DNA of 64,000 nucleotides from a virus, in the IMG/VR virus record IMGVR_UViG_3300045988_179183; one strand, 5' to 3'. The notes under the pieces are model-generated. The model was not told the origin of the DNA. It saw nothing but the letters and a program-made list of their open reading frames with translations, and did no database searches. The stretch's first letter is position 1. Every line of letters starts with the position of its first letter. The translations under genes were made by a program, and so were the position numbers. Of the stretch, positions 28,589 through 64,000 are shown one piece after another.

Positions 28589-29398
28589 TTAAATGGTCCA
28601 ATACTTACGTAACGTATCCTGATCACTAACCGTGATCACTCCGTTATTATTAACAACTTTTGCTAAAAGGAATTCGATATCCTGAACATACGCTGGAGGG
28701 CCGCCATTAACCGATTCAGTCAATAACTTCGACGCGTTATATCTATCATATGAATACAATCCCTCTTTCTGTTCGTCTGAGAAATTAGTACCGATGGGTA
28801 ATGTACCGAGAACAACCATTTTTAGATTCTGCTCGGCAACCAAACTATTATATGAATTAATAATCGCGGAAGTTCCGTTCACGACATCAACAACTTCGTA
28901 TATGCCGTTATTCAAAGGATCTGACCCGTCTTCTTTCTCAAACTTAATACTGATCGGTGCCTGACTTCCCTGCCCTCTTAGAACGTTTAAGAAATCAGTG
29001 TTTAGCCCGTTCAAATTTCCATTCACATCGACCGATACGTACCCATCCTCCCAGTGAACGATATCATACGCTAGAAAGACATAATAAGGTATCCCGTTGT
29101 TGGGAACTTCTAGATATCGTATTTCAGGTACTGTGATTAACTGTTTGTTCTTCGTAACGATATACCCCGGGGTTATTTTAATCGTGCCGGGATTCGAATC
29201 AGCTGTCACTCTTAGCTCTGTCGAACTCGATCCCCCCGCTGATGATACTATCCCCCATGATTTCGTTATCCCCATCAACAGGGTCTTGCAGAAACCCAGT
29301 TCGGAGAGAAACTCCTGACTTTTTTGTAGCTCCTCCTTTGAAAGAAACGTTCTTCTGTTATAATTTAATTTACTCATATATCCTTTTGTTTTAATCAA
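28589..29398 (-). CDS. Hypothetical fibre-associated protein
   Basis: ORF downstream of the LRR protein gene. An alternative start lies at 29377. Confidence 0.5.
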   Translation of the reverse strand: MIKTKGYMSKLNYNRRTFLSKEELQKSQEFLSELGFCKTLLMGITKSWGIVSSAGGSSSTELRVTADSNPGTIKITPGYIVTKNKQLITVPEIRYLEVPNNGIPYYVFLAYDIVHWEDGYVSVDVNGNLNGLNTDFLNVLRGQGSQAPISIKFEKEDGSDPLNNGIYEVVDVVNGTSAIINSYNSLVAEQNLKMVVLGTLPIGTNFSDEQKEGLYSYDRYNASKLLTESVNGGPPAYVQDIEFLLAKVVNNNGVITVSDQDTLRKYWTI

Positions 29399-32300: not shown

Positions 32301-34646
32301 ACTCGTTGCGTTACCCAAGTTCAAAGATGTCATTTGATTATTATCGGCATTCATGTTGATAAGCGCAACATTCGCGGCAACGTTAAGAGAAGTCAACTTG
32401 TTATCGTTCAAAAGTAAGTTTTTTAACGATACGAGGTTACTCAAATCAAGCGACGAAAAGTTATTTCTCCCCAAATCCAAGTAATTCACATTCGGATTCG
32501 CGGTTAGGGATAGATTGGATAATTTATTATTCTTCAATGAAATCGATGTTACCTTTGTTAACGATGATATATCTATCTGGGTTAACAAATTATTATCCAT
32601 GTTAAGAACATCGATATTCGGCATATTAGTAAAACTGACAGATATAATTTCATTATCGGGTACGTTCAATGTCGTTATATCCCCGTCATTGATCACGATA
32701 ACGTGTTGGGCCTGATTATCAGTATATCGGTGTGTTAGAATATCGGTTGTCGTCACACCATCCCCCCAATCAACAACCAACTTCCCATCATACTGAGTTC
32801 CCTCGAAAGAAAACGCACGTTTTGACGTGACAAAATTCATCAACGATTTTTTGAACACGACGTTTGCGACTATGTTTTTGCTCATCGAAACCAGATATTG
32901 ATTCGAAACTGGCTTCATCTCCCCGTCTATCTCGACCGAATCTATCTGATACCCAACACTAGGTGTGATTCTGATAGTCGCGATATCCCCGGCTCTGTAC
33001 GTCCCGGCACCCACAACAACACCTCCGGCTGTTGGAACCCAGTTAACTGTAAGAACGAAGAACATAATATCAACACCCGTTAAATAAGTTGGTAGCAGAA
33101 CATTGTTCTTGTAACTTAAAAGGTATTGCTCCGTGAAGTTCTTAATATATGATTCCTCCCTCCCGGAATTATTATAAAAGTATGTTGCAATCGGTAGTAT
33201 CGAACTCAAGTATCCCCGCTCGATCGATAATTGTAGCGGTTTTACCTTGATATCTCGTATTAGAAGTGCCTTATCGCCGCTCTGATATGTTTGTGTTATA
33301 ACGGGCGTGAAATATCGCATATCCTTGTGGGATAACAAGGGTGTCCCGTTTAGGAAGTTAAGTCTCACATTCGGGTTCGGATATTCATCCGCTCTTAATA
33401 TAACCGCACGGAACCAATATTCAACACCGATCTGATTTATCACCCGTGGTGTATCCTTGTCGTAAAATGAATTCTGAGGCTGCCCGGTCTGAGCGTTGGA
33501 AAAATCCAAGGGTGAGAGATTTTTATCGTAACCCTTCACACCGAAATTCAAATGATCGGGTGCGGTTACCTCACCGGAAATGGCGATGACCCTGAAATAA
33601 ATCTCATAGGGTATGGAAGGCGAGATCTTCAACAATTTTTCTTTATCAACAGGTGCTTCAATACCGTTCGTCCCCGCGGATGTTGCCAACCTCAACCATT
33701 CATAGAGTCCGTGTTGAAAAACATCAACTGAACCAACGACAGGATACTTCGATATATCCTTAATCGATTCGGTGTACTCATATGCCTTCATCGCGTTAAC
33801 GATCTGCTCCGTTCCGATCCACATGGGCGAGGAGAAATCACAACACCAGCCCAGATCCTGTCTCACTAAGTTAAAAAACATGAATTCCTCGTCCGGGTTA
33901 TAATTAATCAGTCTCAAAAATTCCCCGTTCACCGTCCCGTCCATGTCTATGATGTTACGCGTTCCCCTTTTTCGAAATTCATCTATGTAATGCGAGAAGA
34001 GATAATTTCTCTGTAATTGAGTTTCCTCCCCGGAAAGGGCCAACCCCCTTCCCTCCAGAAATAAATTGAATAGAATGTTATTTCCCGGTATATCCTCAAA
34101 CTGTCGTGCCATGTAAACGATCAGAGCGAAAAAATGCGTTATCGATAGCCAATAATCGATGAAATCCTTACTATTCTCCGTGTAATCTCTTTGTACATAT
34201 TTAGGAAGTATTCCTAATTCATATAATTTTTCGAGCACGTTAAAAGCCCAGCCCAGAACATTGATATCATTAACATCGAAAAATTGCTTGAAATCCGTTT
34301 TCGAATATATCGTATCATCGCCTTGACGAACCTCGCCTTCAAGCTGAACCCAGTTAAAATAGAGCTCTCCATTCTGTCCTTCGTGTTCATACGTGTATTC
34401 GAATAAAAACGATTCCTTTTCCTTGATTGGAACGTTTTGTAGGTTCGCGGCTGTCAAATTTTGCCAATCACTCCAATTTGTTCCTATATCTTTTGAATAG
34501 CGGAATTTCTTCTGATAATACATATCGGCTGTTTCACCGGATGTGTTATCTATGAAACCGTACAACAAAACTAAACCCAAAACGGGTACATCAGTACTGA
34601 TATGGAGCACATCGCCATTCTCCGTTGTTTTATTCTCAATGATCAT
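29391..34646 (-). CDS. Giant tail adhesin with leucine-rich repeats (1751 aa)
   Basis: Domain layout: an N-terminal ~530-aa domain; an InlB-B-repeat-like Ig module (GAGTYRAGDIATIRITPSVGYQIDS); ~25 LRRs of about 22 aa (e.g. LTSLNLSS..L..L.C..N.LT) at aa ~657-1168; a LamG-like insert at aa ~1196-1410; and a second LRR block at aa ~1416-1670. Confidence 0.7.
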   Translation of the reverse strand: MIIENKTTENGDVLHISTDVPVLGLVLLYGFIDNTSGETADMYYQKKFRYSKDIGTNWSDWQNLTAANLQNVPIKEKESFLFEYTYEHEGQNGELYFNWVQLEGEVRQGDDTIYSKTDFKQFFDVNDINVLGWAFNVLEKLYELGILPKYVQRDYTENSKDFIDYWLSITHFFALIVYMARQFEDIPGNNILFNLFLEGRGLALSGEETQLQRNYLFSHYIDEFRKRGTRNIIDMDGTVNGEFLRLINYNPDEEFMFFNLVRQDLGWCCDFSSPMWIGTEQIVNAMKAYEYTESIKDISKYPVVGSVDVFQHGLYEWLRLATSAGTNGIEAPVDKEKLLKISPSIPYEIYFRVIAISGEVTAPDHLNFGVKGYDKNLSPLDFSNAQTGQPQNSFYDKDTPRVINQIGVEYWFRAVILRADEYPNPNVRLNFLNGTPLLSHKDMRYFTPVITQTYQSGDKALLIRDIKVKPLQLSIERGYLSSILPIATYFYNNSGREESYIKNFTEQYLLSYKNNVLLPTYLTGVDIMFFVLTVNWVPTAGGVVVGAGTYRAGDIATIRITPSVGYQIDSVEIDGEMKPVSNQYLVSMSKNIVANVVFKKSLMNFVTSKRAFSFEGTQYDGKLVVDWGDGVTTTDILTHRYTDNQAQHVIVINDGDITTLNVPDNEIISVSFTNMPNIDVLNMDNNLLTQIDISSLTKVTSISLKNNKLSNLSLTANPNVNYLDLGRNNFSSLDLSNLVSLKNLLLNDNKLTSLNVAANVALINMNADNNQMTSLNLGNATSLKLITVYNNKLTTFTIPSSNILVDLNIGKNNLSTGNFTGAGYPKLTTLLIADMPVMTSLTVTGMDLLTTLTASKCPAMTVANVTNNSKLPSVDISGCGSLLTADCGDNSILTSVNVLNDGKLQSLRTDNTSISTMIDLSTNSNLATLSMDNNRLTTFSAPYCTKLANLSLSNNQLTSITLTNNTELKNIDVDNNQLTSLNLSSHPGVRGLNCSHNLLTDSSAASIVTSNNLVNVDASYNNFTQFTISNKPQLKFVELHDCPVLKTATATNNALMETLDVSNNPVLETLNGYNNALETVNISTDNALKFVYLYNNQIHTFNYTGCKNIVNLNLNQNLLTSFDPNAIGESLQVLNISENLLTTLNLTNTVNLTTLNCDNNNLTNLTFTPEGGSTAENVEDVVNSMTTPIDIAYLLNGNMNKMNKSLLEFSSIVGQPRYVEGYEEGRSALQMGSTYAELPLTMSSNVTSEVSGSFMIYPTDVTSYQGLCGGVFFGLNTGQFGWAIGWGQNTFQNKLTVDLYTRSGRQTCQAIQLTPNRWQHVMFRFKWNGGPWLTEIYVDGVKYTASTTPGGDTLSYDGLLGFTGTEHISFGRGYQSGWKLFKGRAQDVIITDRYFSDSDVQRLINYYKNVGALRFPKLELVNCSYNELTTLDLSTIDYVRKFNCSYNQLGKNQSSGQPSITFGKALAAGNKLEDFNASNNQLKLIDLTNNSNLLNVNLNNNPDMTIDGLGWWNSIMNVQTWLSSNTSIPAFGIVTRNLVKLDLSKNNSLKTLLIAVPTSLEYLDLSDSVNLPGAQVYYALLQSSKLKELYLRNLTQFSPQDAYEGWVPLYHMEGLEVIDISGSTAVRTEVQKSVGGTVKYCANLRWMSVENCKQLERIEVFTSTRITYLNFAGCSADTMVVSSETPSYKEIHAENARVASELLSNYNGFLRYLNSTTDGKYYYSNSDLYLKEGGPSRDLVLAKGWNLILVD

Positions 34647-35987: not shown

Positions 35988-38900
35988 TTATCCGAAAACT
36001 AAATATAAAACCCCACTTGCCTGTGTAGCCGGTAACGCGTCAACCGGCTGAATATCTGTGACCTTCTTGGTTGAAGTCGATTTCACGAAATTCTGGGAAT
36101 TAACCCACGCCTGAGTCGCGTAACCATTTAATGCAGAACTAGTAATAAATCCACTATCATTAGTCAAATGACTGGTATTTGTTGGTATATTAACTGTTGC
36201 TGCAGCACCATTAGGATCAAATGTTTTAGCAGAGAAAGTTCCAGCTTGGAATGTTAGATTATATATAGTTTGATGTGATGTTAGATAACCCTTATTATTT
36301 ACCCATGTTTGGGTGGCCACTAAATCTCCATTCATGTATAAACTACCCCAATATCCATTAGCATAAGAAGTACTAGAACCAGCTCTCCATACCCAAGTAG
36401 AAGGAGCATAAGTACAACCAGAAGGAATTCTATAATTAACTATCACTTCATTGGAAGCAGAAGTGGCAATAGTATTTCCTAAACAAAATTCATTTCCTCT
36501 AGTTCTAATAGTAGTATAACTACCAGTAGTATTGTATAATGATAGGGAAGCAAATTGACCATTAGCCCAACTCTGTGTTGCATATCCATCTAAAGAACTA
36601 GATGTTAAATATGTAGCTCCTTTAGTAACAGTTAATGTATGGCCATTAGCTGTTATTGCAGTTACAGCATTACCAGAACCACTATTAGATATAGAGATAC
36701 TTGGTATAGATGGTATTTGATCTGTAGTAGCTATTGTTTTTCCAAATAAAAATCCTTTAGCTGTGCTTAAGTCTAATTGAAATGTTGAAGTATTAGACAA
36801 AGTAATCCTAAAAGTATTACCAGTATTTAATAATTCCATACTAAGTAGTCTTTCAGCTGCAGTGGTAGTATCTATAGCTGCACCAGATCTTCTAGCTACT
36901 AATAAAGGAGTTTGACCCCCATCCCCTGGAACTTGAACACTTAATGCTCCAGCTCCTCCATTCCAATTATTTCCTGTTCCTCCAACTACATCAATTACAG
37001 CATTATTTTTTCTGCTGTTCATGGTCAGAGCACCTGTTAATGTTCCTCCAGACAAAGGTAAATATCCTGAAACAGTAGGAATATCTGTAATTAAAGCTAA
37101 TCTAGTACTGCCAGAAGTTGTTCCAACTCTAGCATATCCATCATTATCTATAAATAAATATTTGTTAGAATTATAATTATATATATAAGCACCTAGACTA
37201 TCCATGAATCCTATTGCAGCTGAAGCAGTTCCCCTTCTAAGAACTCTCATAAAAGTTTCAGATCCATTAGTGTCATTATTATTAATTACAAGAGTTGTGC
37301 TTCCAACTGTATTTATAGTTAAATTGCCTGATAATGTTCCTCCAGTTAGAGGAAGATAATTACCTATATCAGATGTAGTAGCTAATTTAATCCACTTTCC
37401 AAATGATGTCCATTTAGTTCTATAATAAAGTTCTGTCCTATTAGCACCTGCCCATAATTGGATTCCTTCATCATCTCCTTGAACACTAAATAATAATCCA
37501 CTACTTGTTGGAGTTCCAGCAACACCCTGAGTTTCAGCATAAAATATTTGATTAGTAGGTACACTATTTGGATTATTATTATAAGATGCTGATAATATAT
37601 TAACATCTTTATTTGTTAATAACCTATTCCATTCTCCATATGTTGTCTCATTATAAGCCATATGCCTATAATAAAGACCATTTTTACTAGCTTCTGCACC
37701 ACCTGGAAACCATAATTGATTTGCCCAATGAGCATTTCTTGAATTTACTTGTAATACAGTTCCATAATTAGTGGGACCTCCTGCACTAGATACATCATAA
37801 GCATCTAATACTTGTAAATACCCACTATAATTTCTATTTGGAGTTAAATCATTTGTCCAAATACTACTTCTAAATCCTATTCCATTTTCAATATATATAA
37901 TTCCTCTAGAATAAATTCCATTAGCAGGTACTAAATTTAAAGCATCACTGGTATAACTTGGTCCTACATACAATCCTCCAGTAGCTACTTTATGAACTCC
38001 ACCAGCAGAATTTAGAAACTGAAATGCATTAGTGGAGGCGATCATATATGGACCCGTTACACCGAATACCAATTTGTTGGTATATACCGATGCGATATAT
38101 CCTGCCAGAAAAGCCCAACTCGATGATCCTAATTGCGATACACCACCCGATGCAAGACTCTTTTCGACATTGGGAAGGAAACCATTACCATTTGCTCTCA
38201 ACCATGGATACGTTGTGCCGTCAACTCTGATGATCGCCGGGTAATTGTTCTCATCGAAAGATAACCCAGCAATATTCTCATCTGCGGTCACGACTCTCTT
38301 CCAGTTGGATGAATCACCGTACCCAAGGTTATTGGCGGTCCTGAACCACATCCTGCCTGTTCCGTTATCCACGTTATGGATTATATCGAATGCGAGCTGA
38401 GTTTTCAGTGCCGCCTCATTATAGGATGAAGTGTAAGGTCCATCTATCTGTAATACATTGCCATAACCCATACCAGTAGGTGCATTGACAATCTTCCCTG
38501 GGGTGTAATAATTGAATAGGAGTTTCGGTTTATCCACCCCGATCATAGAATTCGCATCGTACCCATCGTTATTAACAGCGTGGGAAACAAATCCGTAAGT
38601 CCATGTGATGTTTTGGGGGAGGAACTCCGTGTAATTCGATGAATCAAGAATCGTGTAATCAGTTGCCCCCTTGGTGTGAATCAAATTGACATTACCACTT
38701 CTAATTTTAGTGGTACCTGAAGCACGACCTAAATGTGCCAACGTTGAACTCTGAGACCAAACCAACGCATTACCGTTCGGGTCATCCAATGACCATGTGA
38801 TTGGAACTACTAATGAAGCGGGTTTGAATTTATATTGTGCTGTACTAGAATTAACATCTCCTATACCTATATAAGCATATCCAAGATTAGTATTATTAAC

Positions 38901-40985
38901 TGAATTGTATCCTCCAAATATAGACTTTGAAGTGGCATCACTATTAGCTTGAAATGTAAGATTTCTTGCCCATGCACTTCCTGCAGGTGTACTTATATTT
39001 ACTAACAAATGTTCATTATTTGTAACTTCAAAAGAACCCACATTAAATTTACCTACTTGAAATGTGTTATTACCAGTAAATGTATTATTCCCTGATTTCG
39101 TTGCGGGATCAGATAAATTATATTTATCCCAGATTTCATAATAAGTTCCACCATGTCCAATAGCCCATTTATCTCCTGCATATCCAAATACCCCTAACTG
39201 AGAGGCTTGTGAATTTATAGCTTGTATAATACAATAATTATCAGCATCAGTGGACTGTAATCTCAATTTAATATCCACTGATTGTTTTATTGTAAGTTGT
39301 CCAGTTAAGGTACCTCCAACAAGTGGAAGGTACTTACCGTCACCCAGATCCTCTAATTGTTGCCATACGGGTGCGCCGGTACCGCTTGAGACAAGGTAAT
39401 ATCCTTTTGTTCCGACCGTTGTCGGGGCGAAGATCGACGTTGTCGGTGCGTTCGTCGCGCTTAAAAAAGTCCATCCTGTTCCATTAACACTCAAATTTCG
39501 ATCGTATATCGTCGTGGGTGTCCCAATGGCACCACCGTTATAAACTGTGGGTTTACTAAGATTATAGGAATCCCATATTTTATATGGGGTGGTATGTCTA
39601 TAATGTATTAAATCCTTATTCGAACTATAAATATTAAGATCTAATGCCGTGTTGCCAAAGCTTAATGTTTCTATGTTGTTAGTATTGTTGATAATTAAAA
39701 GTGTGGCAATCCCTTGTGATATTGATGCCAATAAGGGCTTGTTACCAAGATTTATACTACCAGTCATTGTGCCACCAGAAAGTGGTAAATAATTAGCTAA
39801 ATCAGTTGTGCTCGCCGGGGTTGGTAGGTTATAAGCATCCCATATTTTATAACTAGTATCCGACCTATGATGTAAGAGATCGCTAGCATTTGAAATAATT
39901 CTAGTTGAAAGAGCTGCTGATCCTATATCAAGTCGATTATTAAAAGATCTTAATATGTAGGTGTCACCAGTGCCATCAGCATTTCCTATTATACCTGATT
40001 CTGCAGGAAATCTAATACTACCCTTCATTGTACCACCGGCAAGGGGGAGGTAATTGGTTAGTTTATTATTGAAATCATCACTTAACGTTTTTAACGCGTC
40101 CGTGACAGCTTTCTGAGACATGACTTTATCCGTCGCCGCACCCGATACTTGAAGAACTGATGCTTTGTCAAACTTCAAATTAAGGGCATCCGTCGTTGCC
40201 TTCTGAGACATCGGATCAATTGTTGATTCCCCGGTTCCTTGCTGACTCACCAACCGATTGATGATATCATTATAATTATGTTTATGCGCCGGTGTGAGCG
40301 GAGTGAGTGGTGAGGGATCTCCCGGAACGATTGATCCATTTGATAGAGCCTGTAACCATGAATATTGTCCCGGCAACATAACCCCGGCTAATTGATCTGT
40401 CGCACCTTGAATCGTTGTCTCCTTTCCGGCAGAGCTGTGAATCGTCACCTCCGTCTCCGAATATGACGTGGTTAAGTTAACCGTGATATTTATCTTTCCC
40501 AGGGATTCCCAGGACCGGGTGACCTCATCCCAGACAATCTTCTCCGAATCCTCGAATGTCTTCCCGCTATACGGATCTGTTACCGTCCCCCCGACGGGTG
40601 AAGTGATGATAACGTACATATCACCCGCTTCCAACGTTGATGGATTAGGAAAATCCGCGCTCACCCGGATCACCCCCTTGAAATCAAGAGGATTACCCAC
40701 GGCACTTTTAACGAAATCCTTTACGGTTATCTTGTAATTGACGTTATTCGAATTAATCAACATGTAATCACCATCATCCGCTAGTTGCCGGGGTGGTAAT
40801 GTAACCAGCCACCCGTCGACATACGCTCGAACCCATTTATGGGTTGCAAGTTCCGACCATGCCGACCCGTCGTAGGCACGAAACACAAACGGAACAACCG
40901 TGTTATCCAACCATATCAGGTTGGTATTGCGGGGAGCGGAACTCCCTATATATATGGCCGCGACCTGTCCTAAATTTCTAATCAT
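35988..40985 (-). CDS. Long tail fibre protein (1665 aa) with repeated fibre modules
   Basis: YLPL(S/A/V/T)GGT(M/L)(T/K/S)G occurs five times. The modules (H)YRH..YKIWD.YNL recur. The sequence is Ser/Thr/Gly/Asn-rich, and the gene sits after the baseplate genes. Confidence 0.8.
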   Translation of the reverse strand: MIRNLGQVAAIYIGSSAPRNTNLIWLDNTVVPFVFRAYDGSAWSELATHKWVRAYVDGWLVTLPPRQLADDGDYMLINSNNVNYKITVKDFVKSAVGNPLDFKGVIRVSADFPNPSTLEAGDMYVIITSPVGGTVTDPYSGKTFEDSEKIVWDEVTRSWESLGKINITVNLTTSYSETEVTIHSSAGKETTIQGATDQLAGVMLPGQYSWLQALSNGSIVPGDPSPLTPLTPAHKHNYNDIINRLVSQQGTGESTIDPMSQKATTDALNLKFDKASVLQVSGAATDKVMSQKAVTDALKTLSDDFNNKLTNYLPLAGGTMKGSIRFPAESGIIGNADGTGDTYILRSFNNRLDIGSAALSTRIISNASDLLHHRSDTSYKIWDAYNLPTPASTTDLANYLPLSGGTMTGSINLGNKPLLASISQGIATLLIINNTNNIETLSFGNTALDLNIYSSNKDLIHYRHTTPYKIWDSYNLSKPTVYNGGAIGTPTTIYDRNLSVNGTGWTFLSATNAPTTSIFAPTTVGTKGYYLVSSGTGAPVWQQLEDLGDGKYLPLVGGTLTGQLTIKQSVDIKLRLQSTDADNYCIIQAINSQASQLGVFGYAGDKWAIGHGGTYYEIWDKYNLSDPATKSGNNTFTGNNTFQVGKFNVGSFEVTNNEHLLVNISTPAGSAWARNLTFQANSDATSKSIFGGYNSVNNTNLGYAYIGIGDVNSSTAQYKFKPASLVVPITWSLDDPNGNALVWSQSSTLAHLGRASGTTKIRSGNVNLIHTKGATDYTILDSSNYTEFLPQNITWTYGFVSHAVNNDGYDANSMIGVDKPKLLFNYYTPGKIVNAPTGMGYGNVLQIDGPYTSSYNEAALKTQLAFDIIHNVDNGTGRMWFRTANNLGYGDSSNWKRVVTADENIAGLSFDENNYPAIIRVDGTTYPWLRANGNGFLPNVEKSLASGGVSQLGSSSWAFLAGYIASVYTNKLVFGVTGPYMIASTNAFQFLNSAGGVHKVATGGLYVGPSYTSDALNLVPANGIYSRGIIYIENGIGFRSSIWTNDLTPNRNYSGYLQVLDAYDVSSAGGPTNYGTVLQVNSRNAHWANQLWFPGGAEASKNGLYYRHMAYNETTYGEWNRLLTNKDVNILSASYNNNPNSVPTNQIFYAETQGVAGTPTSSGLLFSVQGDDEGIQLWAGANRTELYYRTKWTSFGKWIKLATTSDIGNYLPLTGGTLSGNLTINTVGSTTLVINNNDTNGSETFMRVLRRGTASAAIGFMDSLGAYIYNYNSNKYLFIDNDGYARVGTTSGSTRLALITDIPTVSGYLPLSGGTLTGALTMNSRKNNAVIDVVGGTGNNWNGGAGALSVQVPGDGGQTPLLVARRSGAAIDTTTAAERLLSMELLNTGNTFRITLSNTSTFQLDLSTAKGFLFGKTIATTDQIPSIPSISISNSGSGNAVTAITANGHTLTVTKGATYLTSSSLDGYATQSWANGQFASLSLYNTTGSYTTIRTRGNEFCLGNTIATSASNEVIVNYRIPSGCTYAPSTWVWRAGSSTSYANGYWGSLYMNGDLVATQTWVNNKGYLTSHQTIYNLTFQAGTFSAKTFDPNGAAATVNIPTNTSHLTNDSGFITSSALNGYATQAWVNSQNFVKSTSTKKVTDIQPVDALPATQASGVLYLVFG

Positions 40986-56314: not shown

Positions 56315-57835
56315 TTATGCTTTCGGTCTCCCGATGTTGCAAATTCTCACGAATTTACCGGGAGCGTATAATACCGGCGTACCGTAGTTCAAAATGGAGA
56401 AACGTCTACTTGGAGAAGTGATCGCGTATTCCATTTTCATAGTATCGGCTAATTGCAAGTATTGGATCAAAGAATCATCCATCTTGAATACCAATGCCGA
56501 ATGAGTGCCTGCGATAGAGCGGTTTCTATCACGAACCGCACCAGCGGCGGCTCCATCATACCCAGAAGCTAACGCTGCTGCCGGGATTTGGAAAATCGGA
56601 TAATAGTTCGCCGTGTTCGGATTTGCCGGGTTTGCCTCCGTACGATAAATCACAAATGCTTGTGTCGGGTACGTTGAATTGATCGCGGCGGTAAATTTCA
56701 AATCTACCGAATCAGTTGCAGTCACAGCTTGAGCCGCATCGTTCAATTTCGTTAACGCACTCTCACCGTAGCGGTTTTTAGCTGCGACGGCGTATAAATA
56801 CGTACCCGCATGATTCGTGAATTTCGTTTTTGAATCAGCTGCAACAATTTTAACAGCGGCTGATACGTCTTTAACAGGTGCTGCCGGTGCCTTATCGTTT
56901 GTTGCCGGTGAATTAAATAAACGAGCCGGTTTGCTATCAAAGAACGGATCCGCCATGAAATCAATGTCACCGAACTGGGTTGCAACACTGGTAACCTGCA
57001 AACCTGCTCTCGCGTTCATCATGCTGCCTGACACTCCATTAACATTCAGAACCTTGTTTTCAGTATGATCATTCACATAATCAGTGAATACAATCGGGTT
57101 TGCGATAATCTTATCCGCGAAACCGTAACGCAAGTTGACAATCGTGTTTGTTGCTTCCTGCATCAAGAAATCCGTTAAGATACTACCATCGGCATTAACA
57201 ACTGCCGGGTCAGCGTAGTAAGTGTCAAGGATACCTTCAGATGTCTTTCCGGCCATTCCGCCATAAACATCGAGAATACCTTCAACGTGCTGTTGCCAGA
57301 TTCCTGAGAATTCTTCCTCGATGCAGCTACTGTCGAAATTGGTCAATGCAACATCCAAGCTTTGTAACAATAACAAAGTTTTGTTACGAACTTCGAGTTC
57401 AAACATTGAATCACCCTCTGCTGCAATCCGCACCAACGTTGCGGGATGTGTAACCTGACCGCTCACACCCAAGAATTTCGTGATGATCGGTTTGCGTCTG
57501 TATTGTGAATCAGTGAATTGAGGAGTTTCTCCCTCAAGATTAGCAATACCGACATTGTTACCGTATTTCACCAACTGATTGTATTGATGTACGGTATTAT
57601 AAATTTTTTTCTTTCCGATGTTTTTCCAGAATACCAACTGTTTTTCAGTATATTCCAACACCTTGATAACGCCATCCAAAGACTCCACTTTCAAGCCACC
57701 TCCGTTATTCAGAGTGTTGGCATATTGCATACCAGTCATAAGACCGGCTTCCATCGCCTTCAGAATATCCGCAGTTAAGAACTCTCCGCGATCGATCCCC
57801 GGAGCAACTTCATTTAAACCAATTTGTTCTAACAT
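56315..57835 (-). CDS. Putative major capsid protein (506 aa)
   Basis: Protease-scaffold-capsid gene order, followed by the strongest terminator in the window. No sequence motif could be verified by eye. Confidence 0.55.
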   Translation of the reverse strand: MLEQIGLNEVAPGIDRGEFLTADILKAMEAGLMTGMQYANTLNNGGGLKVESLDGVIKVLEYTEKQLVFWKNIGKKKIYNTVHQYNQLVKYGNNVGIANLEGETPQFTDSQYRRKPIITKFLGVSGQVTHPATLVRIAAEGDSMFELEVRNKTLLLLQSLDVALTNFDSSCIEEEFSGIWQQHVEGILDVYGGMAGKTSEGILDTYYADPAVVNADGSILTDFLMQEATNTIVNLRYGFADKIIANPIVFTDYVNDHTENKVLNVNGVSGSMMNARAGLQVTSVATQFGDIDFMADPFFDSKPARLFNSPATNDKAPAAPVKDVSAAVKIVAADSKTKFTNHAGTYLYAVAAKNRYGESALTKLNDAAQAVTATDSVDLKFTAAINSTYPTQAFVIYRTEANPANPNTANYYPIFQIPAAALASGYDGAAAGAVRDRNRSIAGTHSALVFKMDDSLIQYLQLADTMKMEYAITSPSRRFSILNYGTPVLYAPGKFVRICNIGRPKA

Positions 57836-57865: not shown

Positions 57866-58585
57866 TTACTCAACAACTTCAATACCTTGTTTACCCAAGT
57901 AATCAATGGTCGATTGAGATATCATCGCATTACCTGTTGAATAAGACATGATATCGTTCGCAAGTGATTTTTTCAAATCACCGTCCTGTGCCTTCTCAAA
58001 GCATTCAGTCATGATCCGTTTCAAAGGTTCACGGTGTATTGATTTTGAAAGAACTTTCTTTCCATCATCGGTTGTTTTAACATTAAATGATTTTTCTAGT
58101 ACCGCACCCTTATCAACAGAGCGGAATGGCATTGGTTGGTCTCTTAAAACCGAAATCTCATCCTTTATTGATTTCATAATGGATTTCATTTCCCCAAGAG
58201 ATTCCGAAAGATCAGAAAGGAATTCCTTTTGTGATTTATAGAAGTCCGCCTGTAATGCTTTCTCCATTTCATCGTCTTCGTCTTCTCTTTTTTTCTTTTT
58301 CTCCAACTTATCCTTTTCTTCCGCCTCTCCGGCTCTTTTTCCTTCTTCGTAATCGCGACGTTCATGTTCGCCCGATTTTTTCTCATCATAGGCGATTTCC
58401 TCTTTTTCAGTGTACTTTGATTTACTTAAAGTGGAAATCTCTCCGTTATCAATACTCTTCAAGATGTAGTCGTGTTCAAAATCCGCATCCATCAAAGCAC
58501 TCACGACGGAGTCGCCACAATATTGATCCAAAGAAAGACCCCTCTTTTGCAATTCCTGCACTATCTCATTCGTAATCGGTTTCAT
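57866..58585 (-). CDS. Putative scaffolding protein (239 aa)
   Basis: Highly charged Glu/Lys-rich helical sequence, between the protease-like and capsid-like genes. Confidence 0.5.
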   Translation of the reverse strand: MKPITNEIVQELQKRGLSLDQYCGDSVVSALMDADFEHDYILKSIDNGEISTLSKSKYTEKEEIAYDEKKSGEHERRDYEEGKRAGEAEEKDKLEKKKKREDEDDEMEKALQADFYKSQKEFLSDLSESLGEMKSIMKSIKDEISVLRDQPMPFRSVDKGAVLEKSFNVKTTDDGKKVLSKSIHREPLKRIMTECFEKAQDGDLKKSLANDIMSYSTGNAMISQSTIDYLGKQGIEVVE

Positions 58586-58636: not shown

Positions 58637-59461
58637 TTAATTTGACAAACGAAAATTTTTCTCAATCTTTTTGACAAAATCACGGTAAACTTTCTCTGAA
58701 ATTAGACCAGATTTAAAACTTTTCGTTATTTTTTCGATTGTTTTTACTTTGTACTGGGGTTTTTTCTTGACCTTGATTCTAAACTTGGTATCCAACATTA
58801 ATAGATTTCCCCGTTCATCCTCCCACTCCAAGATCACCTTGTCACCTTCGTCAAAATCTTTATCACTTTCAAATTCGTAATCGATGAAATCAGCAGATTG
58901 ACGTCCCTTGATAATGTCAAAAAATGAATTCGTATTCACCGGCTGAAAAGTTAGCGCGACGTTTGTGATCAACGCCTTATTTACTTTTCGGGGATTTGTC
59001 TTATCTCTTTCGATGACCTTTCCTTCTATCGACATTCCGGGTTTGCGGGTTGACCCTGATTCAGCCATCTGAATGCACTTATCCCAGAACGCTCTCGCTT
59101 CCGGTGATTTTTTCCACAATTTCCCTTTAACAAAAAATTTATTATCTTTCACCCATGCGTCGAGAGGTTCCCCTATCCAGAAACGCGATTTATTCTCCTT
59201 CGATCGTGATGTTAGGTGATCTAAATTTAACAGCCCGCTTTTCAGAAACCTGTCCAATATAAACCCATTGGGATTCATGGATTCACCCTCATCATCCTCG
59301 CTACTATCACTTGCAACACCCTCGAAAACCATGTTGTCATACCGTGAATCATCATCAGTACCAGTCGATTTTTCTTTCGACGTCTTTGCCTTCTCTATAT
59401 CTATAGGAACCCAGAAATTAAATTTATCTTCCATTATCGATTTCGATTTACTTATTATCAC
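58637..59461 (-). CDS. Putative prohead protease (HK97 U35/S78-like)
   Basis: FEGVASDSSEDDEGESMNPNGF...LLNLDH...IGEPLDAWVKDNKFFVKGKL...GMSIEG resembles the prohead protease pattern (G.AS...D..ge.i, H....iG, v.g.l, lSiG). The start may instead be at 59434. Confidence 0.5.
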   Translation of the reverse strand: MIISKSKSIMEDKFNFWVPIDIEKAKTSKEKSTGTDDDSRYDNMVFEGVASDSSEDDEGESMNPNGFILDRFLKSGLLNLDHLTSRSKENKSRFWIGEPLDAWVKDNKFFVKGKLWKKSPEARAFWDKCIQMAESGSTRKPGMSIEGKVIERDKTNPRKVNKALITNVALTFQPVNTNSFFDIIKGRQSADFIDYEFESDKDFDEGDKVILEWEDERGNLLMLDTKFRIKVKKKPQYKVKTIEKITKSFKSGLISEKVYRDFVKKIEKNFRLSN

Positions 59462-59634: not shown

Positions 59635-60714
59635 CTAACCTTTCTGTTTTTCTTGTTTTTTAGCGTTTCTCTCATCGAGTTTTTCCTTCACCCTTCTCTT
59701 GAATTCATCGTCGAATTCATCACTCTCTAATAAACGATTTAACGCATCACTTATCTCATCAGCCTCTTCCTTCGCGGATACATTCCTACTCTCCAATTCT
59801 TGCCGGGCGATCTGTTTCACCTCATCGGATTGCCCCGGTTTCTTGATCGCAGATTCAAGTTGTTGATCGGTGGCATTTGCGGCGTATTCCTCGAGAACTG
59901 CTCTTTTATCTTGAACCTTATTTTCAGAGCGTGACGTTTGATTCTTTCCCTGTTCATCTTGGTTTGCAGAAGATGAACCCTTTCCTTTGGGTCGCCAGCC
60001 CTTAGTCGTTCTAACGTATACCTTTCCGCCCCAAGTTCTTTCCTCTCCAATCATCGCAGCCCTCGCTTTCTCCAAAGGTTCATCGGGGATAACGATATCA
60101 ACACTGTAAAACTTGGACCCCGATAATCCCATATCCAACACGTTACCAACTGATTCATTCCATTCCTGATGGGTACCCTCCCTTTTTTCAGCTTTAATAA
60201 ATTCAATCTTACCTTCCTTATCCTTCGCAAGGATTCTATACGGCGCGGAATTTTTATCTTTCCTTAAATACAATTCACATTGACCGTTCTTTAATATAAG
60301 TTCCCAGATTTTATCTTCAAGTGAAATATTTCCCTCAATCATAGGGATGACCCATGTTTGAGTATCGGAAGAAAATAACGAGATTAAATTTTTGGCATTA
60401 GTATTTTTCCCGCTATTTCTAAGACGAATCGCTGCGACTTCACGAACGCTGAAATTTCCTTTAGGTGATGTGAATGATGTATTGCCCTCTCCGTGATCTT
60501 TTTGATATATTAATTTGAATTCCGGGTCATTCTTCATCCTCGTTTCAACTTGTGCATTTCTTTCCCTGAACTCTGTTTCAACAATACGATTCACGGATTC
60601 ATCGGTAAGAATCCACCCACGAGGAGTTTTCATATAGCTTCTACCTCCCCAAGTCCTGATTTCACCCATATAAGCCGCTCTTTTGGATTTTTCCATCATA
60701 CCTTGAAATTTCAA
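59635..60714 (-). CDS. Hypothetical head-module protein with a duplicated RTWGG motif
   Basis: AAYMGEIRTWGGRSYMKTPRGW (N-terminal) and AAMIGEERTWGGKVYVRTTKGW (middle). The C-terminus is charged. Confidence 0.5.
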   Translation of the reverse strand: MKFQGMMEKSKRAAYMGEIRTWGGRSYMKTPRGWILTDESVNRIVETEFRERNAQVETRMKNDPEFKLIYQKDHGEGNTSFTSPKGNFSVREVAAIRLRNSGKNTNAKNLISLFSSDTQTWVIPMIEGNISLEDKIWELILKNGQCELYLRKDKNSAPYRILAKDKEGKIEFIKAEKREGTHQEWNESVGNVLDMGLSGSKFYSVDIVIPDEPLEKARAAMIGEERTWGGKVYVRTTKGWRPKGKGSSSANQDEQGKNQTSRSENKVQDKRAVLEEYAANATDQQLESAIKKPGQSDEVKQIARQELESRNVSAKEEADEISDALNRLLESDEFDDEFKRRVKEKLDERNAKKQEKQKG

Positions 60715-60745
60715 ATGCGGGGTTCCCCGTGGAACCCCTTTTATC

Positions 60746-62488
60746 TTAATGTAATTGTAATCTATATTTACTTTGTTTCAACGTGGCGAGGAAATCGTCG
60801 ATCCAAGAAATCTCTCCGTTATAATCAGGGTCTCCATCAAGTATCGCTCTTAACTCTTCCGTTCTTTCAAATAGAAGGTCAACCAATTCGATTGGATCAT
60901 TCACATCAATCTGTTCACCAACAATCTCACCATCACCGAATCTTCCAAACTCTGACTGACCTGCTTCCGCGAATTTATCCTCGAAATCAGAAACTTCATA
61001 CGAGAGTTCATCCAGATAAGCATGTTTTGAATTATCCTCCTCGCTCCAATGAATGTTCTTGATCCTCGTTTTCACGCCTTCGATAAAATTGAGATAATCT
61101 CTGAACAATGATTTATCCCCGGGATCTGATTTCTCTAATTCAGAAATATCGATTCCCGTCATTCGAAGTTTCCCTTCTGCCTTAATCTCTTCAACCATTG
61201 ATTTGAAAAGTTCCGCGTGCTCAGAATCATCAAAACTAACGGTAACAGAAAAACCTGACTTCTCAACACGATCATCTTTTGTTTCACCATCCAATGATTC
61301 TCTCGCTATCACCCCGGCCTGTTCAACACCCATTCCTTTCTCAACATCTTTTTCACGCCAACTTTCAGGCAATTCGCTTTCAAGACCCAATTCCTTCGCT
61401 CTTTTCTTAATCCAAGACTTCACCTCATTTTTAGGCGTTGAAGATGCACCAACCAATCTGATGGCATCTTTGAGGTCTTGACTGTTTCTTATAGGGTACT
61501 TTCCATCGGGCATCGCTTCTCCTTCTTTTGCAAGTTTACCCCTCTCCTTCTCGGAGAAATATGTTTTATTCCTCGCCTTCTCAACCGCTTCCTTGAAAAA
61601 CGAAGGAGTGATCTTTCCTTCCTTCAACGCTTTCGCGAGTATCTCAATCGTTTCAGGTCCCTTTGATTCTTTCTCTTCCATGCCGGTAAGTTTTTTAATA
61701 TTATCTTTCATATTGAAAATAAAATCATATTTATCTAAATCTTTAAGTTCAATCCACTCAACCCCGTCGTGTTCAGTGCTATCGACCATCACTGAAGGTT
61801 GCTTATCATCAGTGAACGCCCTGTAATAGTTTATTGAACTATCACGATCCTGATAAAAACCGATAGGCGAAGGCTGAAAATTCAATTTTAACCCCGTCTC
61901 TTCCTTCAATTCGCGTTCAGCTGCATCACGGTGACTCTCACCGTAATCAACATGACCTCCCGGGATACACCATTCACCCCCTTCATCGGACTTACCTTCC
62001 TGTATTCTATGTAAAATTAGAAGTCGGCCATCGCCATCAAAAACAAGAACATCCGAGTATTCAACAGGACCTTCCTTGCCTTTTTGAATCAACTTATTAA
62101 ATGTGTCCATTGAAATACTTCCTGATTTGAAAAGTTTTTTCGATTCAAAATATCTGTCAACGTTCTCACATTCTTCCATAATCGATTCATCCTTTCTTAA
62201 TTGATCCATCTCTTTCTCAATTTTCATTTTCGATTTGATCAGATCATGTACATTCTGTTTATGATAAATCATAAACTCGTTGAACTTTGATAGTCGCTTT
62301 TCCTGTTCAATAATATCGCCCGAGATACTCAAATCTTCAACAATTGACTTATTCAATCTGAATGAATCCGCGAGTTCTTCTCCTTGTATCGAAATAACGT
62401 CCAAGCTTTTTAGTAGTTCAATATAACGGGCTACCTTCGCCTCGTCACTTTCATTCCGTTGTCCCAGTATTTTTTTTAACCAACCCAT
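60746..62488 (-). CDS. Multidomain protein: coiled coil + Nudix hydrolase + conserved phage motif + Dps/ferritin-like C-terminal region
   Basis: Nudix box GGHVDYGESHRDAAERELKEETGL. The C-terminal IKNIHWSEEDNSKHAYLDELSYEVSDFEDKFAEAGQSEFG...ISWIDDFLATLKQSKYRLQ resembles Dps (HWNV.G..F..LH...D..AER...LGG ... eK..WML). Confidence 0.6.
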   Translation of the reverse strand: MGWLKKILGQRNESDEAKVARYIELLKSLDVISIQGEELADSFRLNKSIVEDLSISGDIIEQEKRLSKFNEFMIYHKQNVHDLIKSKMKIEKEMDQLRKDESIMEECENVDRYFESKKLFKSGSISMDTFNKLIQKGKEGPVEYSDVLVFDGDGRLLILHRIQEGKSDEGGEWCIPGGHVDYGESHRDAAERELKEETGLKLNFQPSPIGFYQDRDSSINYYRAFTDDKQPSVMVDSTEHDGVEWIELKDLDKYDFIFNMKDNIKKLTGMEEKESKGPETIEILAKALKEGKITPSFFKEAVEKARNKTYFSEKERGKLAKEGEAMPDGKYPIRNSQDLKDAIRLVGASSTPKNEVKSWIKKRAKELGLESELPESWREKDVEKGMGVEQAGVIARESLDGETKDDRVEKSGFSVTVSFDDSEHAELFKSMVEEIKAEGKLRMTGIDISELEKSDPGDKSLFRDYLNFIEGVKTRIKNIHWSEEDNSKHAYLDELSYEVSDFEDKFAEAGQSEFGRFGDGEIVGEQIDVNDPIELVDLLFERTEELRAILDGDPDYNGEISWIDDFLATLKQSKYRLQLH

Positions 62489-62489
62489 A

Positions 62490-63137
62490 CTATAAATTGT
62501 TATACGCTATGATTTCATTAAATAAATCTAGCTTCATATTATCATAAAATAATTCGATGTTTCTTTTAACTCTATCCTCGGAAAAACCGTCGGATGCGTA
62601 TAATTCACTAAGCATTATGTCAGCTATATCTTCTTTCGATATGGAATTAAATTCGCTCAAGGGTTTCCCCTTCCAATTATAATTATACAGTTTACTTTTT
62701 CTATCGTTTATTCTTTGACGAACTATGGTCTTCACCTTCGCGTTCACGGCGTTCTCGTTATTTAGATGGTTCTCCTTTCTTATTCTGAGAACTTCTTCGA
62801 ACATGGTGAATTTTGCAAGATCAAATAACGCGTTTGTTGTCGTTTTCACTTGTTCTATCGTACATTCTTTCGTTGCACCCTCCCGGATTTCTTTCAAAAT
62901 CGAAAGCATATTATCGTTTATCTCCGTTTGCTTTTTCATGTAATCACTCGCCGTACCTTTCGCGAGAATCATATCCGTCAACTTATCATTCTTTTTTTCC
63001 AATCTCGCCCAATTCTGGGTAGTTTTCCTGAATACGTTGAGGAATATAACGATCATAATCGCACTCATGACCACCGTGATCCCATTATCCGCTATAAGTT
63101 TTACCAATGTACTCGTCTCTTCCATTATTGATTGCAA
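62490..63137 (-). CDS. Hypothetical membrane-anchored protein (215 aa)
   Basis: One N-terminal hydrophobic helix, GITVVMSAIMIVIFLNVF. Confidence 0.45.
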   Translation of the reverse strand: MQSIMEETSTLVKLIADNGITVVMSAIMIVIFLNVFRKTTQNWARLEKKNDKLTDMILAKGTASDYMKKQTEINDNMLSILKEIREGATKECTIEQVKTTTNALFDLAKFTMFEEVLRIRKENHLNNENAVNAKVKTIVRQRINDRKSKLYNYNWKGKPLSEFNSISKEDIADIMLSELYASDGFSEDRVKRNIELFYDNMKLDLFNEIIAYNNL

Positions 63138-63190: not shown

Positions 63191-64000
63191 TTAAGTATAA
63201 AAAACTTTGTCACCAACAATAATTTTGACCTTTGCACCCGGTGCTGTTTTTCTTTTATAATCAATCGGTTGCTTGAATGACCTCGTTTCCTTGTCCCAAA
63301 CATCACCTTTCATGTATCGTCTCGCCAAACAACGGCAGTTGCCGCTGACACATACATTATCGTTTCTTCTAACAACCAATGTATGGTTCTTCTCAAGTTC
63401 AACATCATAAATAAAACCTTTATAAGGTTTTATTTCTTTTTTCATAACTTTCTCGTACCTGTATTTTGAATTCAGTTCAGCGACATTCCATTGGTCATAT
63501 CTGGCAAGATAATCTTTCTTCTGTTTTTTACAATGATAGATCGATTTCCCTCTATTTTTAAACGAAGGACATTTCCCCACTTTTAATAAAAGTTCACCCA
63601 AGTCATCCTTCAATTTCACCGATGATGTTGAGTATATCCTTTGAGGCTTGCACTGATACCCATCATACAAAACACCACGATGAACCGTACCATCACCTAG
63701 AAGAAACGCATCAAGAAATATTTTAATGTATTTAGGTGATAATTCTTTTATGAAATCGGGTACGTATTTTTCATGCGCGTGACCGAATGATCGAATTATA
63801 TGTATCAAATCCTTGTCATTCTCCTTGTTTAAGTTAAATTCAATCCTTTCTTTTGTTACGATAACATTTTTGAATAATGCCCTGCAACATTTAATTATTT
63901 TCTCTTTCGCTTCGGATTTTTTTTGGCTTATATTAACTCTTCTCCTCAGTATCGTACGATTCTTATCACCCCACTCTGTGAAAGAGCCTTCCGACAAATA
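63191..64000 (-). CDS. Probable MuF/SPP1 gp7-like minor head protein, C-terminal part, containing an intein; the gene runs off the window end
   Basis: The ORF is open to the window edge. The C-extein begins CRCLARRY, which resembles the conserved (H/P)NCRC motif at the end of MuF-like head morphogenesis proteins. The position at the start of the head module fits. Confidence 0.4.
   Translation of the reverse strand, partial: YLSEGSFTEWGDKNRTILRRRVNISQKKSEAKEKIIKCCRALFKNVIVTKERIEFNLNKENDKDLIHIIRSFGHAHEKYVPDFIKELSPKYIKIFLDAFLLGDGTVHRGVLYDGYQCKPQRIYSTSSVKLKDDLGELLLKVGKCPSFKNRGKSIYHCKKQKKDYLARYDQWNVAELNSKYRYEKVMKKEIKPYKGFIYDVELEKNHTLVVRRNDNVCVSGNCRCLARRYMKGDVWDKETRSFKQPIDYKRKTAPGAKVKIIVGDKVFYT
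63338..64000 (-). mobile_element. Intein (C-terminal part only; N-terminus outside the window) with a LAGLIDADG motif
   Basis: LAGLIDADG motif FLDAFLLGDGTV. Block F is GFIYDVELEKNHTLVV. Block G is NVCVSGN|C (codon-checked; Asn at 63338..63340, +1 Cys at 63335..63337). The penultimate residue is Gly, not His. Confidence 0.65.

Follow-up and report, generated by a model that had tools for sequence, protein, structure and literature searches.

A protein of 580 amino acids (aa), encoded among the head genes of a viral sequence (IMG/VR record IMGVR_UViG_3300045988_179183), joins a Nudix hydrolase domain to a Dps-like four-helix domain, with a mobile module of ~75 aa between the two and candidate prohead protease sites in the connecting linkers. 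The stretch analysed is 64,000 nucleotides (nt) long and is referred to below as the window. Our favoured reading, which we put forward tentatively, is that the protein is a cargo polyprotein held inside the capsid and that its Nudix and Dps-like parts protect against oxidative damage. This role is favoured because Dps removes Fe(II) and peroxide near DNA, while oxidised nucleotides are cleared by Nudix enzymes of the MutT type; the occurrence of the Dps-like part as cargo associated with the head where no Nudix domain is present would fit as well.

Layout of the Protein and Its Homologues

The gene was taken from the list of open reading frames (ORFs) and occupies positions 60746–62488 of the minus strand, from an ATG start to a stop codon at 60746–60748. 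A sequence-only reading of the window had described a fusion protein at exactly these limits. The ORF is real, and the correction concerns its strand: read in the plus direction, 60746–62488 is interrupted by many stops. A plus-strand ORF that overlaps the gene (60550–61062) was dismissed: it runs antisense to the Nudix gene, whose conservation extends over more than 1,000 homologues.

The layout of the protein was read from an AlphaFold2 model of the whole chain (mean predicted local distance difference test, pLDDT, 77) and from an alignment of 40 homologues, A1, in which residue invariance and conserved blocks were scored. An N-terminal region (aa 1–140; 62069–62488), without a match in the Pfam scan, is predicted to form three long, coiled-coil-like helices at aa 15–55, 59–98 and 101–121, in agreement with the coiled coil proposed earlier. 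It is followed by a compact Nudix hydrolase domain (aa 141–270; 61679–62068; PF00293) and by two predicted helices at aa 279–306, which lead into the mobile module (aa 305–380; 61349–61576), a conserved block in A1. Beyond the module lies a disordered linker at aa 380–412 (pLDDT <50), where homologues carry extra modules, and then a second, small conserved block (aa 412–450; 61139–61255; 'GFSVTVSFDD..A.LFKS..E....G') with a predicted helix at aa 422–437. The C-terminal Dps-like domain (DUF5856; aa 455–580; 60749–61126) is modelled as a four-helix bundle spanning aa 456–579. All of these coordinates refer to the minus strand, as do those of every gene of the window described below.

A search of 5.8 billion proteins gave 1,295 homologues at E≤0.001. 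In precomputed annotations, NUDIX is present in each of the best 120 of these (332–973 aa) and PF19174 in most of them. Many homologues lie on 90–110-kb gut-phage contigs, where the source annotations read 'MutT' or 'hypothetical'. Among deposited phages the full architecture was found only in the unannotated gut metagenomic record MT835500.

Candidate Prohead Protease Sites at Every Domain Boundary

The pattern Phi-E-K-[S/A/G/T] is present at every domain boundary of the Nudix–Dps-like protein. The first candidate site, V-E-K-A at aa 302–305 (61574–61585), has the form Phi-x-K-[SAGT] in 40/40 homologues, with K304 invariant. The second, V-E-K-G at aa 382–385 (61334–61345), also has an invariant lysine (K384) and matches the strict motif, [VILMF]EK[SAGT], in 31/40 homologues and the loose one in 34/40. 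V-E-K-S at aa 408–411 (61256–61267) is kept in loose form in 37/40, and L-E-K-S at aa 451–454 (61127–61138), right before the Dps-like domain, in strict form in 29/40 and in loose form in 34/40. Sites 2–4 fall in low-confidence linkers (pLDDT <50, including aa 380–412 and 451–455), and the four sites are retained in position in 34–40 of the 40 homologues despite variable surrounding linkers. Averaged over the 40 homologues, the motif occurs 4.05 times per protein compared with 0.52 expected.

Expected counts were obtained from 500 residue-shuffles of each protein. The strict motif was observed 4 times in the Nudix fusion (0.43 expected) and 3 times in the scaffold-like protein of the same head operon (0.24 expected), levels reached in 0/500 shuffles for either protein, and twice in the product of the adjacent 359-aa gene (0.26 expected, p=0.03). 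With the looser Phi-x-K-[SAG], 7 sites were observed in the prohead protease against 1.9 expected (0/500 shuffles). The 17 other window proteins, ~9,000 aa together, contain 3 strict motifs in total, and within the window enrichment is confined to the Nudix fusion, the scaffold, the protease and the 359-aa gene. The pattern was replicated in the related phages L007 and L009, with 3 and 4 motifs in the Nudix proteins and 3 and 5 in the scaffolds. A compositional artefact of Lys/Glu-rich proteins was ruled out, as residue-shuffled controls never reached the observed counts.

The major capsid protein (MCP) has a single loose site, 'ADILK/AMEAGL' (the slash follows K26), which coincides with the switch from variable to conserved sequence in three diverged MCPs: their N-termini comprise ~20 variable residues and then a common '(A/S/N)EILKAMEAGL.TGMQY'. 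Cleavage of an MCP propeptide after K26 is likely on this comparison. From these patterns we infer that Phi-x-K-[S/A/G], cut after the lysine, is the site of the prohead protease of this lineage and that the Nudix fusion is among the proteins it cuts, in which case the fusion would be located within the procapsid. In T4 (L/I-x-E), phiKZ (S/A/G-x-E) and SPN3US (A-x-E), the scaffold, the protease and internal or ejection proteins are well known to be processed at such motifs (PMC5694885).

A Mobile Module Shared with Head Proteins

The ~75-aa module, with the consensus 'GEAMPDGKYPIRN..DL.DAI.L.G.S..P...V..WI.KRA..LGL...LP..W', shows the strongest conservation of any part of the protein in A1 and is duplicated in some homologues. 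Pfam has no family for it, and the PHROG scan was likewise empty. An exhaustive profile search returned 4,966 representative proteins at E≤0.001 and 2,943 at E≤1e-10, which bears out the earlier remark that a motif in the middle of the protein is common in phage proteins. These representatives range from 71 to 1,771 aa and carry 1–3 copies of the module, at any position.

Searches with tblastn located the module in three settings. In actinophages it forms the C-terminus of S78 capsid maturation proteases, ChisanaKitsune gp30 being an example; a portal-annotated GX15bay protein ends with it; and in Bacteroides phage BS162P1 it is a stand-alone protein of 102 aa. Pfam partners were tallied in 89 representatives of at least 250 aa; they comprise ChaB and NUDIX (5 each), Peptidase_S78, Ferritin PF00210 and DUF7211 (4 each), DUF5856 (3), XkdF-type protease (2), and Mu-I protease, rubrerythrin and 2H (1 each). 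The fusions include a phrog_859 'portal protein' (E=1e-98) joined to a canonical Dps and the module (P0276), a Dps with three modules whose gene directly follows a head protein like that in P0276 (P0133), a 2H domain with a head protein and the module (P0164), an S78 protease with the module (P0180), and the module with DUF5856 and no Nudix domain (P0148). Structure matches in BFVD included 'Prohead protease' entries with a Dps-like fold as well as gp346 of phage G. Because it is fused to three prohead-protease families and to a portal-annotated protein, the module is, as judged from these comparisons, a mobile element tightly associated with prohead-resident proteins. Dps/ferritin-fold domains, as annotated or predicted, are repeatedly joined with head proteins, whether or not Nudix is present.

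These results bear on the proposal, made in the sequence-only reading, that the Nudix enzyme is delivered by the virion. Support for it is indirect and comes from the module, shared with proteases and a portal-annotated protein, and from the motif at the domain boundaries.

A Dps-Like C-Terminal Domain

The C-terminal ~125 aa match PF19174 (DUF5856) at 26.1–28.1 bits, below the gathering score of 34.6, with E=1.9e-5 for the full-length protein and 4.4e-6 for the C-terminal domain alone; they also match phrog_858, which has a Dps-derived name. Pfam Ferritin (PF00210) has no match in the 580-aa protein. Foldseek returned only Nudix matches for the full-length model, and the C-terminal domain was therefore modelled separately. 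This gave four long helices (pLDDT 89.9; predicted template-modelling (TM) score 0.85), and nearly all of the top 50 Foldseek matches in the PDB were members of the Dps family, with TM scores of 0.57–0.78 on the query, probabilities of ~1.0 and modest E values of 0.007–0.1. Dps neighbours include the proteins of M. smegmatis and L. innocua, Treponema TpF1, Dpr, NapA and MrgA. Structure prediction for this region had been suggested as a check on the initial call, and a four-helix bundle with Dps neighbours is what it produced.

Aligned to E. coli Dps, H480/W481 correspond to H51/W52, H489 to H63, D493 to D67, D504 to D78 and E508 to E82. Each of these phage residues is invariant in the phage family, as are H51, W52, H63, D78 and E82 in the Dps alignment, and helix B has the same spacing from H to D/E as in Dps (15 and 19 residues). 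When the domain was compared by hhalign with a profile of 11 Dps proteins, built from plasmid-borne dps genes, the match had E=8.1e-5 and a probability of 61%; comparison with the single E. coli Dps sequence, checked against 1F30, was insignificant (E=0.16). A Dps hidden Markov model (HMM) reached two DUF5856 domains at ~3e-4, and the hhalign and HMM alignments agree on one ligand register. On this register the C-terminal domain keeps the complete set of Dps ferroxidase ligands, and the original Dps/ferritin-like call was right in substance: a Dps fold is predicted and the ligands are invariant.

In Dps the ferroxidase site is built at the interface of two subunits, and at least dimerisation is therefore expected of the phage domain; by analogy with Dps it should dimerise or form larger oligomers and bind Fe(II). 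Compared with the Dps proteins of known structure (1DPS/1F30, 1UVH/2YW7 and that of L. innocua), the phage domain has the same HW...H-x3-D...D-x3-E ligand pattern, identical helix B spacing and a four-helix bundle, whereas its A–B loop is 3 residues shorter and it forms the C-terminal domain of a polyprotein.

The same family includes the 'putative DpsA' of crAss-like phages (DUF5856/PF19174), to which the window domain is 26–43% identical in structure-based alignment and 33–39% by tblastn. The crAss DpsA is a stand-alone protein of ~149 aa, whereas the window domain is fused behind Nudix and module in a head operon. Stand-alone DUF5856 DpsA genes are found in PhiCrAssBcn25 (L002, 5929–6378) and Dulem virus 41 (L003, 5989–6438), and DpsA genes of crAss-like and other gut phages lie close to HU, GroES-like, GroEL-like and ferredoxin-thioredoxin reductase-like genes outside the head module. 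A word-based search with crAss DpsA recovered close crAss relatives only.

The Nudix Domain

Pfam NUDIX (PF00293) matches aa 147–255 with E=2.9e-20 and 73.1 bits against a cut-off of 21.1. The Nudix box at aa 178–200 (61889–61957; GHVDYGESHRDAAERELKEETGL) reads G178-x5-E184-x7-R192-E193-L194-x-E196-E197-x-G199-L200 and fits the canonical GX5EX7REUXEEXGU; G178, E184, R192, E193, E196 and E197 are invariant in the 40 homologues. The canonical box reported from the sequence is thereby confirmed. As all catalytic residues of the box are invariant, the enzyme is very probably intact and active.

With respect to substrate, Foldseek neighbours of the domain are MutT, YmfB, Ap4A hydrolases, RppH and Dcp2 (TM ~0.7–0.8 on MutT-like targets), and the nearest neighbours in sequence and structure are minimal MutT-like enzymes, including NudG and NUDX1. 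None of the NCBIfam equivalogs (MutT, NudG, RppH, ADPRase/NudE/NudF, NadM-Nudix) reached its cut-off for the Nudix domain. The best match had 38.5 bits against a cut-off of 245, and MutT (27.8 against 97.9), NudG and RppH, the last being the second-best match, outscored the ADPRase and NudE models (NudE, 20.9 against 169). In BLASTP, T4 NudE is 32% identical over only 62 aa around the box (pairwise E=7e-6). The similarity profile leans weakly towards (d)NTP pyrophosphohydrolases of the MutT/NudG/NUDX1 type and away from ADPRases. The substrates initially proposed, NAD- or ADP-ribose (ADPR)-derived signals and RNA caps, find no specific backing here, the best similarities being to MutT, NudG and NUDX1 and not to ADP-ribose pyrophosphatases.

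The Head-Gene Neighbourhood

Downstream of the Nudix gene, in order, lie a 359-aa gene (59635–60714), the prohead or head maturation protease (58637–59461; phrog_1028, E=3.3e-37), an acidic/basic scaffold-like protein (57866–58585) and the MCP (56315–57835; phrog_752, E=1.7e-59). The scaffold-like protein is rich in the motif and matches no family in Pfam or PHROGs. The placement given in the sequence-only reading, between a MuF-like head protein and the protease, scaffold and capsid genes, holds in that the gene is upstream of protease, scaffold and MCP; direct adjacency does not hold, as the 359-aa gene and a 215-aa gene intervene.

The 359-aa gene occupies a syntenic position between the Nudix gene and the protease. 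Its product has no match in Pfam or PHROGs and contains two 'EK[SA]..AA..GE.RTWGG..Y..T..GW' repeats. A related block, 'G..Y.KT..GWKPKKKG', is inserted in the linker of some homologues of the Nudix protein (P0022, P0037). From these features the GW repeat is probably another mobile module of head proteins, and the 359-aa protein a probable second internal head protein.

On the upstream side, the 215-aa gene (62490–63137; phrog_19698) ends 1 nt from the start of the Nudix gene, a distance that suggests co-transcription or translational coupling. The N-terminus of its product is hydrophobic (LIADNGITVVMSAIMIVIFLNVF) and probably serves as a membrane anchor, which would be odd for a head operon. 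Further upstream, 63191–64000 contains the 3′ part of a large gene, a 268-aa ORF open to the window end; the whole gene would encode ~655 aa, and the window portion is 47% identical to aa 406–653 of its counterpart in L007 (4961–6928). This is the neighbour that had been called MuF-like. Scans of the window fragment and of full-length homologues against Pfam and PHROGs gave no match to Phage_Mu_F, to a MuF PHROG or to a portal family. All versions of the protein gave a weak LAGLIDADG_3 match and carry '...VCVSGN/CRC...', suggestive of an intein or a homing-endonuclease-like insert. The only other match in these scans was an odd one to phrog_85.

Gene order is kept in two diverged genomes whose Nudix proteins are 48–50% identical to that of the window: portal, small genes, the ~655-aa gene, one or two small genes, Nudix–DUF5856, a gene of 343–599 aa, protease, scaffold and MCP. 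The MCP is 37–38% identical to those of the Bacteroides myophages DAC16-23 and SJC03 and ~29–33% identical to those of SPO1-like Bacillus phages. On this evidence the source is an uncultured gut phage of ~100 kb, probably a myophage, whose capsid protein is distantly SPO1-like.

Several other features were recorded in the structural regions of related phages. A 1,009-aa portal in L009/L010 (2308–5337) contains an intein (PF14890 Intein_splicing and LAGLIDADG_3). In L007 an IS605 OrfB transposase (614–1798) lies next to the portal gene, and a Zeta-toxin/AAA_33 kinase-like protein of 309 aa (3549–4478; phrog_16619, 'minor head protein') is encoded directly after it; with 'LLEK/S' at aa 18, the latter is a candidate for another packaged effector. 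GIY-YIG endonuclease genes are located downstream of the capsid gene in L007 (15496–16407) and L009 (16795–17487). Within the window, the head and tail genes are followed downstream by two very large ORFs, 29391–34646 (1,751 aa) and 35988–40985 (1,665 aa).

Relation to Known Systems

Nudix proteins encoded in head modules or fused to head proteins have been predicted, from gene context and fusions, to be packaged and injected (Iyer et al. 2022, PMC9503650); Dps and ferritin are unmentioned there. The window protein likewise places Nudix among head morphogenesis genes, but it is not fused to MuF, portal or protease, and it adds an adaptor module, a Dps-like domain and candidate sites for the protease. 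For the Dps-like and Mn-catalase genes found in gut phages, a role against oxidative stress in the anaerobic host has been proposed (PMC8008677). In phage G, the ferritin-like gp346 was detected by particle proteomics and discussed in terms of DNA protection (PMC12484599). That protein, a structural match, and the head-fused Dps/ferritin domains show the same association of the fold with the head; they are of the canonical PF00210 type and without Nudix, whereas the window domain is of the divergent DUF5856 type.

T4 internal proteins and Alt, the ejection proteins of phiKZ and SPN3US, and the polyvalent proteins (PMC5512222) follow the same load, trim and deliver logic that we propose here. 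The candidate motif of the window differs from those of T4, phiKZ and SPN3US in having Lys instead of Glu at P1, and targeting would apparently depend on the internal ~75-aa module and not on a short N-terminal capsid targeting sequence.

Head-packaged Nudix proteins (as a computational prediction), phage Dps-like genes and a ferritin-like protein in the phage G virion are thus already known. In the literature searched we found no Nudix–DUF5856 fusion, no recognition of DUF5856 as a Dps with intact ferroxidase ligands, no description of the head-associated module or of the candidate Lys-P1 cleavage motif, and no account of recurrent Dps/ferritin fusion to head proteins; nor did it contain a paper on DUF5856 or a relevant one on crAss DpsA. 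The earlier statement that no system of this architecture has been described stands for the fusion within that literature, but its components have the precedents just named.

Discussion

Computation establishes the domains, the invariant catalytic and metal-binding residues, the gene order, the partners of the module and the excess of the motif. We infer packaging, cleavage, delivery, substrates and physiological role from sequence and predicted structure, and the following scheme is offered on that basis. The protein would be produced late, along with protease, scaffold and capsid protein, and would enter the procapsid by way of the conserved module, the N-terminal helical region or both. The prohead protease would then cut it at Phi-x-K-[S/A/G], after the lysine, in the inter-domain linkers, giving at a minimum a helix-plus-Nudix product (aa 1–304), the module (305–384), a small piece (411–454) and the 126-aa Dps-like domain (455–580). 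Fragments would be kept in the capsid and delivered to the next cell. In a phage that infects strict anaerobes, the Dps-like piece may shield the DNA from iron and peroxide, first when packaged and later when injected, and the Nudix piece, presumably a catalytically intact, minimal hydrolase of the MutT type, may clear oxidised or otherwise unwanted nucleotides upon entry into the cell.

A number of points weigh against this scheme. At the sequence level the likeness to Dps is weak, as the hhalign probability indicates, and an HMM of the C-terminal domain run against all PDB sequences found no Dps. The phage domain is ~30 residues shorter than Dps (~126 aa compared with 145–167 aa) and, in the model, its residues 61–77 do not form the B–C helix. 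DUF5856 alone is not a virion marker, because the stand-alone crAss DpsA genes lie among small non-structural genes outside the head module. Phi-E-K opens each copy of the module, and the enrichment could in part be a module-boundary signature; as the sole explanation this is less likely, since scaffold and MCP have no module. Lysine at P1 is assigned to the protease of the window by analogy with HK97, the protease of which cleaves after Lys. NCBIfam scores do not assign the Nudix domain to a substrate class, and a nucleotide-sanitising enzyme that is expressed late is not obviously well timed. Among deposited phages, we found no close cultured relative.

The nearest competitor, and the reading first proposed from the sequence, is that the protein is indeed packaged and processed but serves anti-defence or host takeover at the start of infection: injected Nudix would destroy NAD/ADPR-derived or other nucleotide signals, or decap or de-NADylate RNA, with the Dps-like domain a mere accessory for oligomerisation or metal binding. 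Module and motif count equally for this possibility, and the same has been proposed in the literature for Nudix proteins that are encoded in head modules or fused to MuF, portal or protease (PMC9503650). The module is also found together with 2H phosphoesterases, for which degradation of signalling nucleotides is predicted, and the portal family phrog_15528 contains a Nudix segment. RppH and Dcp2 are among the structural neighbours, RppH ranks second in NCBIfam, and the region of the box weakly resembles T4 NudE. We nevertheless regard this reading as unlikely, if a serious contender: ADPRase- and NudE-type models score below those of the MutT and NudG types, strict conservation of five Dps ferroxidase ligands is unexplained by an accessory role, and the Dps-like part appears to be cargo itself, because module and DUF5856 occur together without Nudix (P0148) and canonical Dps is fused to or encoded with head proteins (P0276, P0133).

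A bifunctional late enzyme that stays unpackaged in the cytoplasm, helping the anaerobic host and replicating phage DNA to tolerate oxygen, iron and peroxide, would make location in the head operon a matter of expression timing only. MutT plus Dps would be a coherent antioxidant pair from what is generally known of both families, and crAss-like phages do have stand-alone DUF5856 genes outside the structural module. Such a role was proposed by Benler et al. for the Dps-like and Mn-catalase genes of gut phages (PMC8008677). We consider it distinctly unlikely for the window protein, since it leaves unexplained why the linker motif is common to scaffold, protease and the MCP propeptide boundary, why the module is common to proteases and a portal-annotated head protein, and why head-module synteny is strict across diverged genomes. 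An auxiliary scaffold or core protein that acts through its N-terminal helices and module in assembly alone, and is cleaved and expelled before or during DNA packaging so that neither enzyme domain reaches the next host, would account for the scaffold-like density of cleavage motifs and the long helical N-terminus, and multiple propeptide sites do help fragment clearance in T4-like and phiKZ-like phages (PMC5694885), but it is very improbable, as the sites lie between folded domains, intact domains of 14–35 kDa are unlikely to pass capsid pores, and invariant catalytic and metal-binding residues would be pointless in a disposable scaffold.

Our preferred interpretation, an antioxidant capsid cargo, can be extended to a more general proposal, about which we are somewhat doubtful: that Dps/ferritin domains are a widespread, so far unrecognised, capsid-internal antioxidant cargo of tailed phages that shields packaged and newly injected DNA from iron and peroxide, recruited by the ~75-aa module, released here by the protease and co-delivered with Nudix or 2H enzymes. 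Of more general use are a module that is abundant, absent from Pfam and a marker of head-associated proteins, a motif at which proteases of this lineage are candidates to cleave, and the finding that Dps/ferritin domains are repeatedly fused to head proteins; module and motif may also provide handles for loading foreign proteins into capsids. If the cargo interpretation is correct, a large family of gut phages, represented by more than 1,000 protein clusters, would carry an enzyme payload in the capsid that consists of a nucleotide pyrophosphohydrolase and an iron-detoxifying, DNA-protecting domain. The functions of injected phage proteins would then extend past ADP-ribosyltransferases, RNA polymerases and anti-restriction proteins to protection of DNA against oxidation, with a bearing on how phages of strict anaerobes survive exposure to oxygen and iron between hosts.

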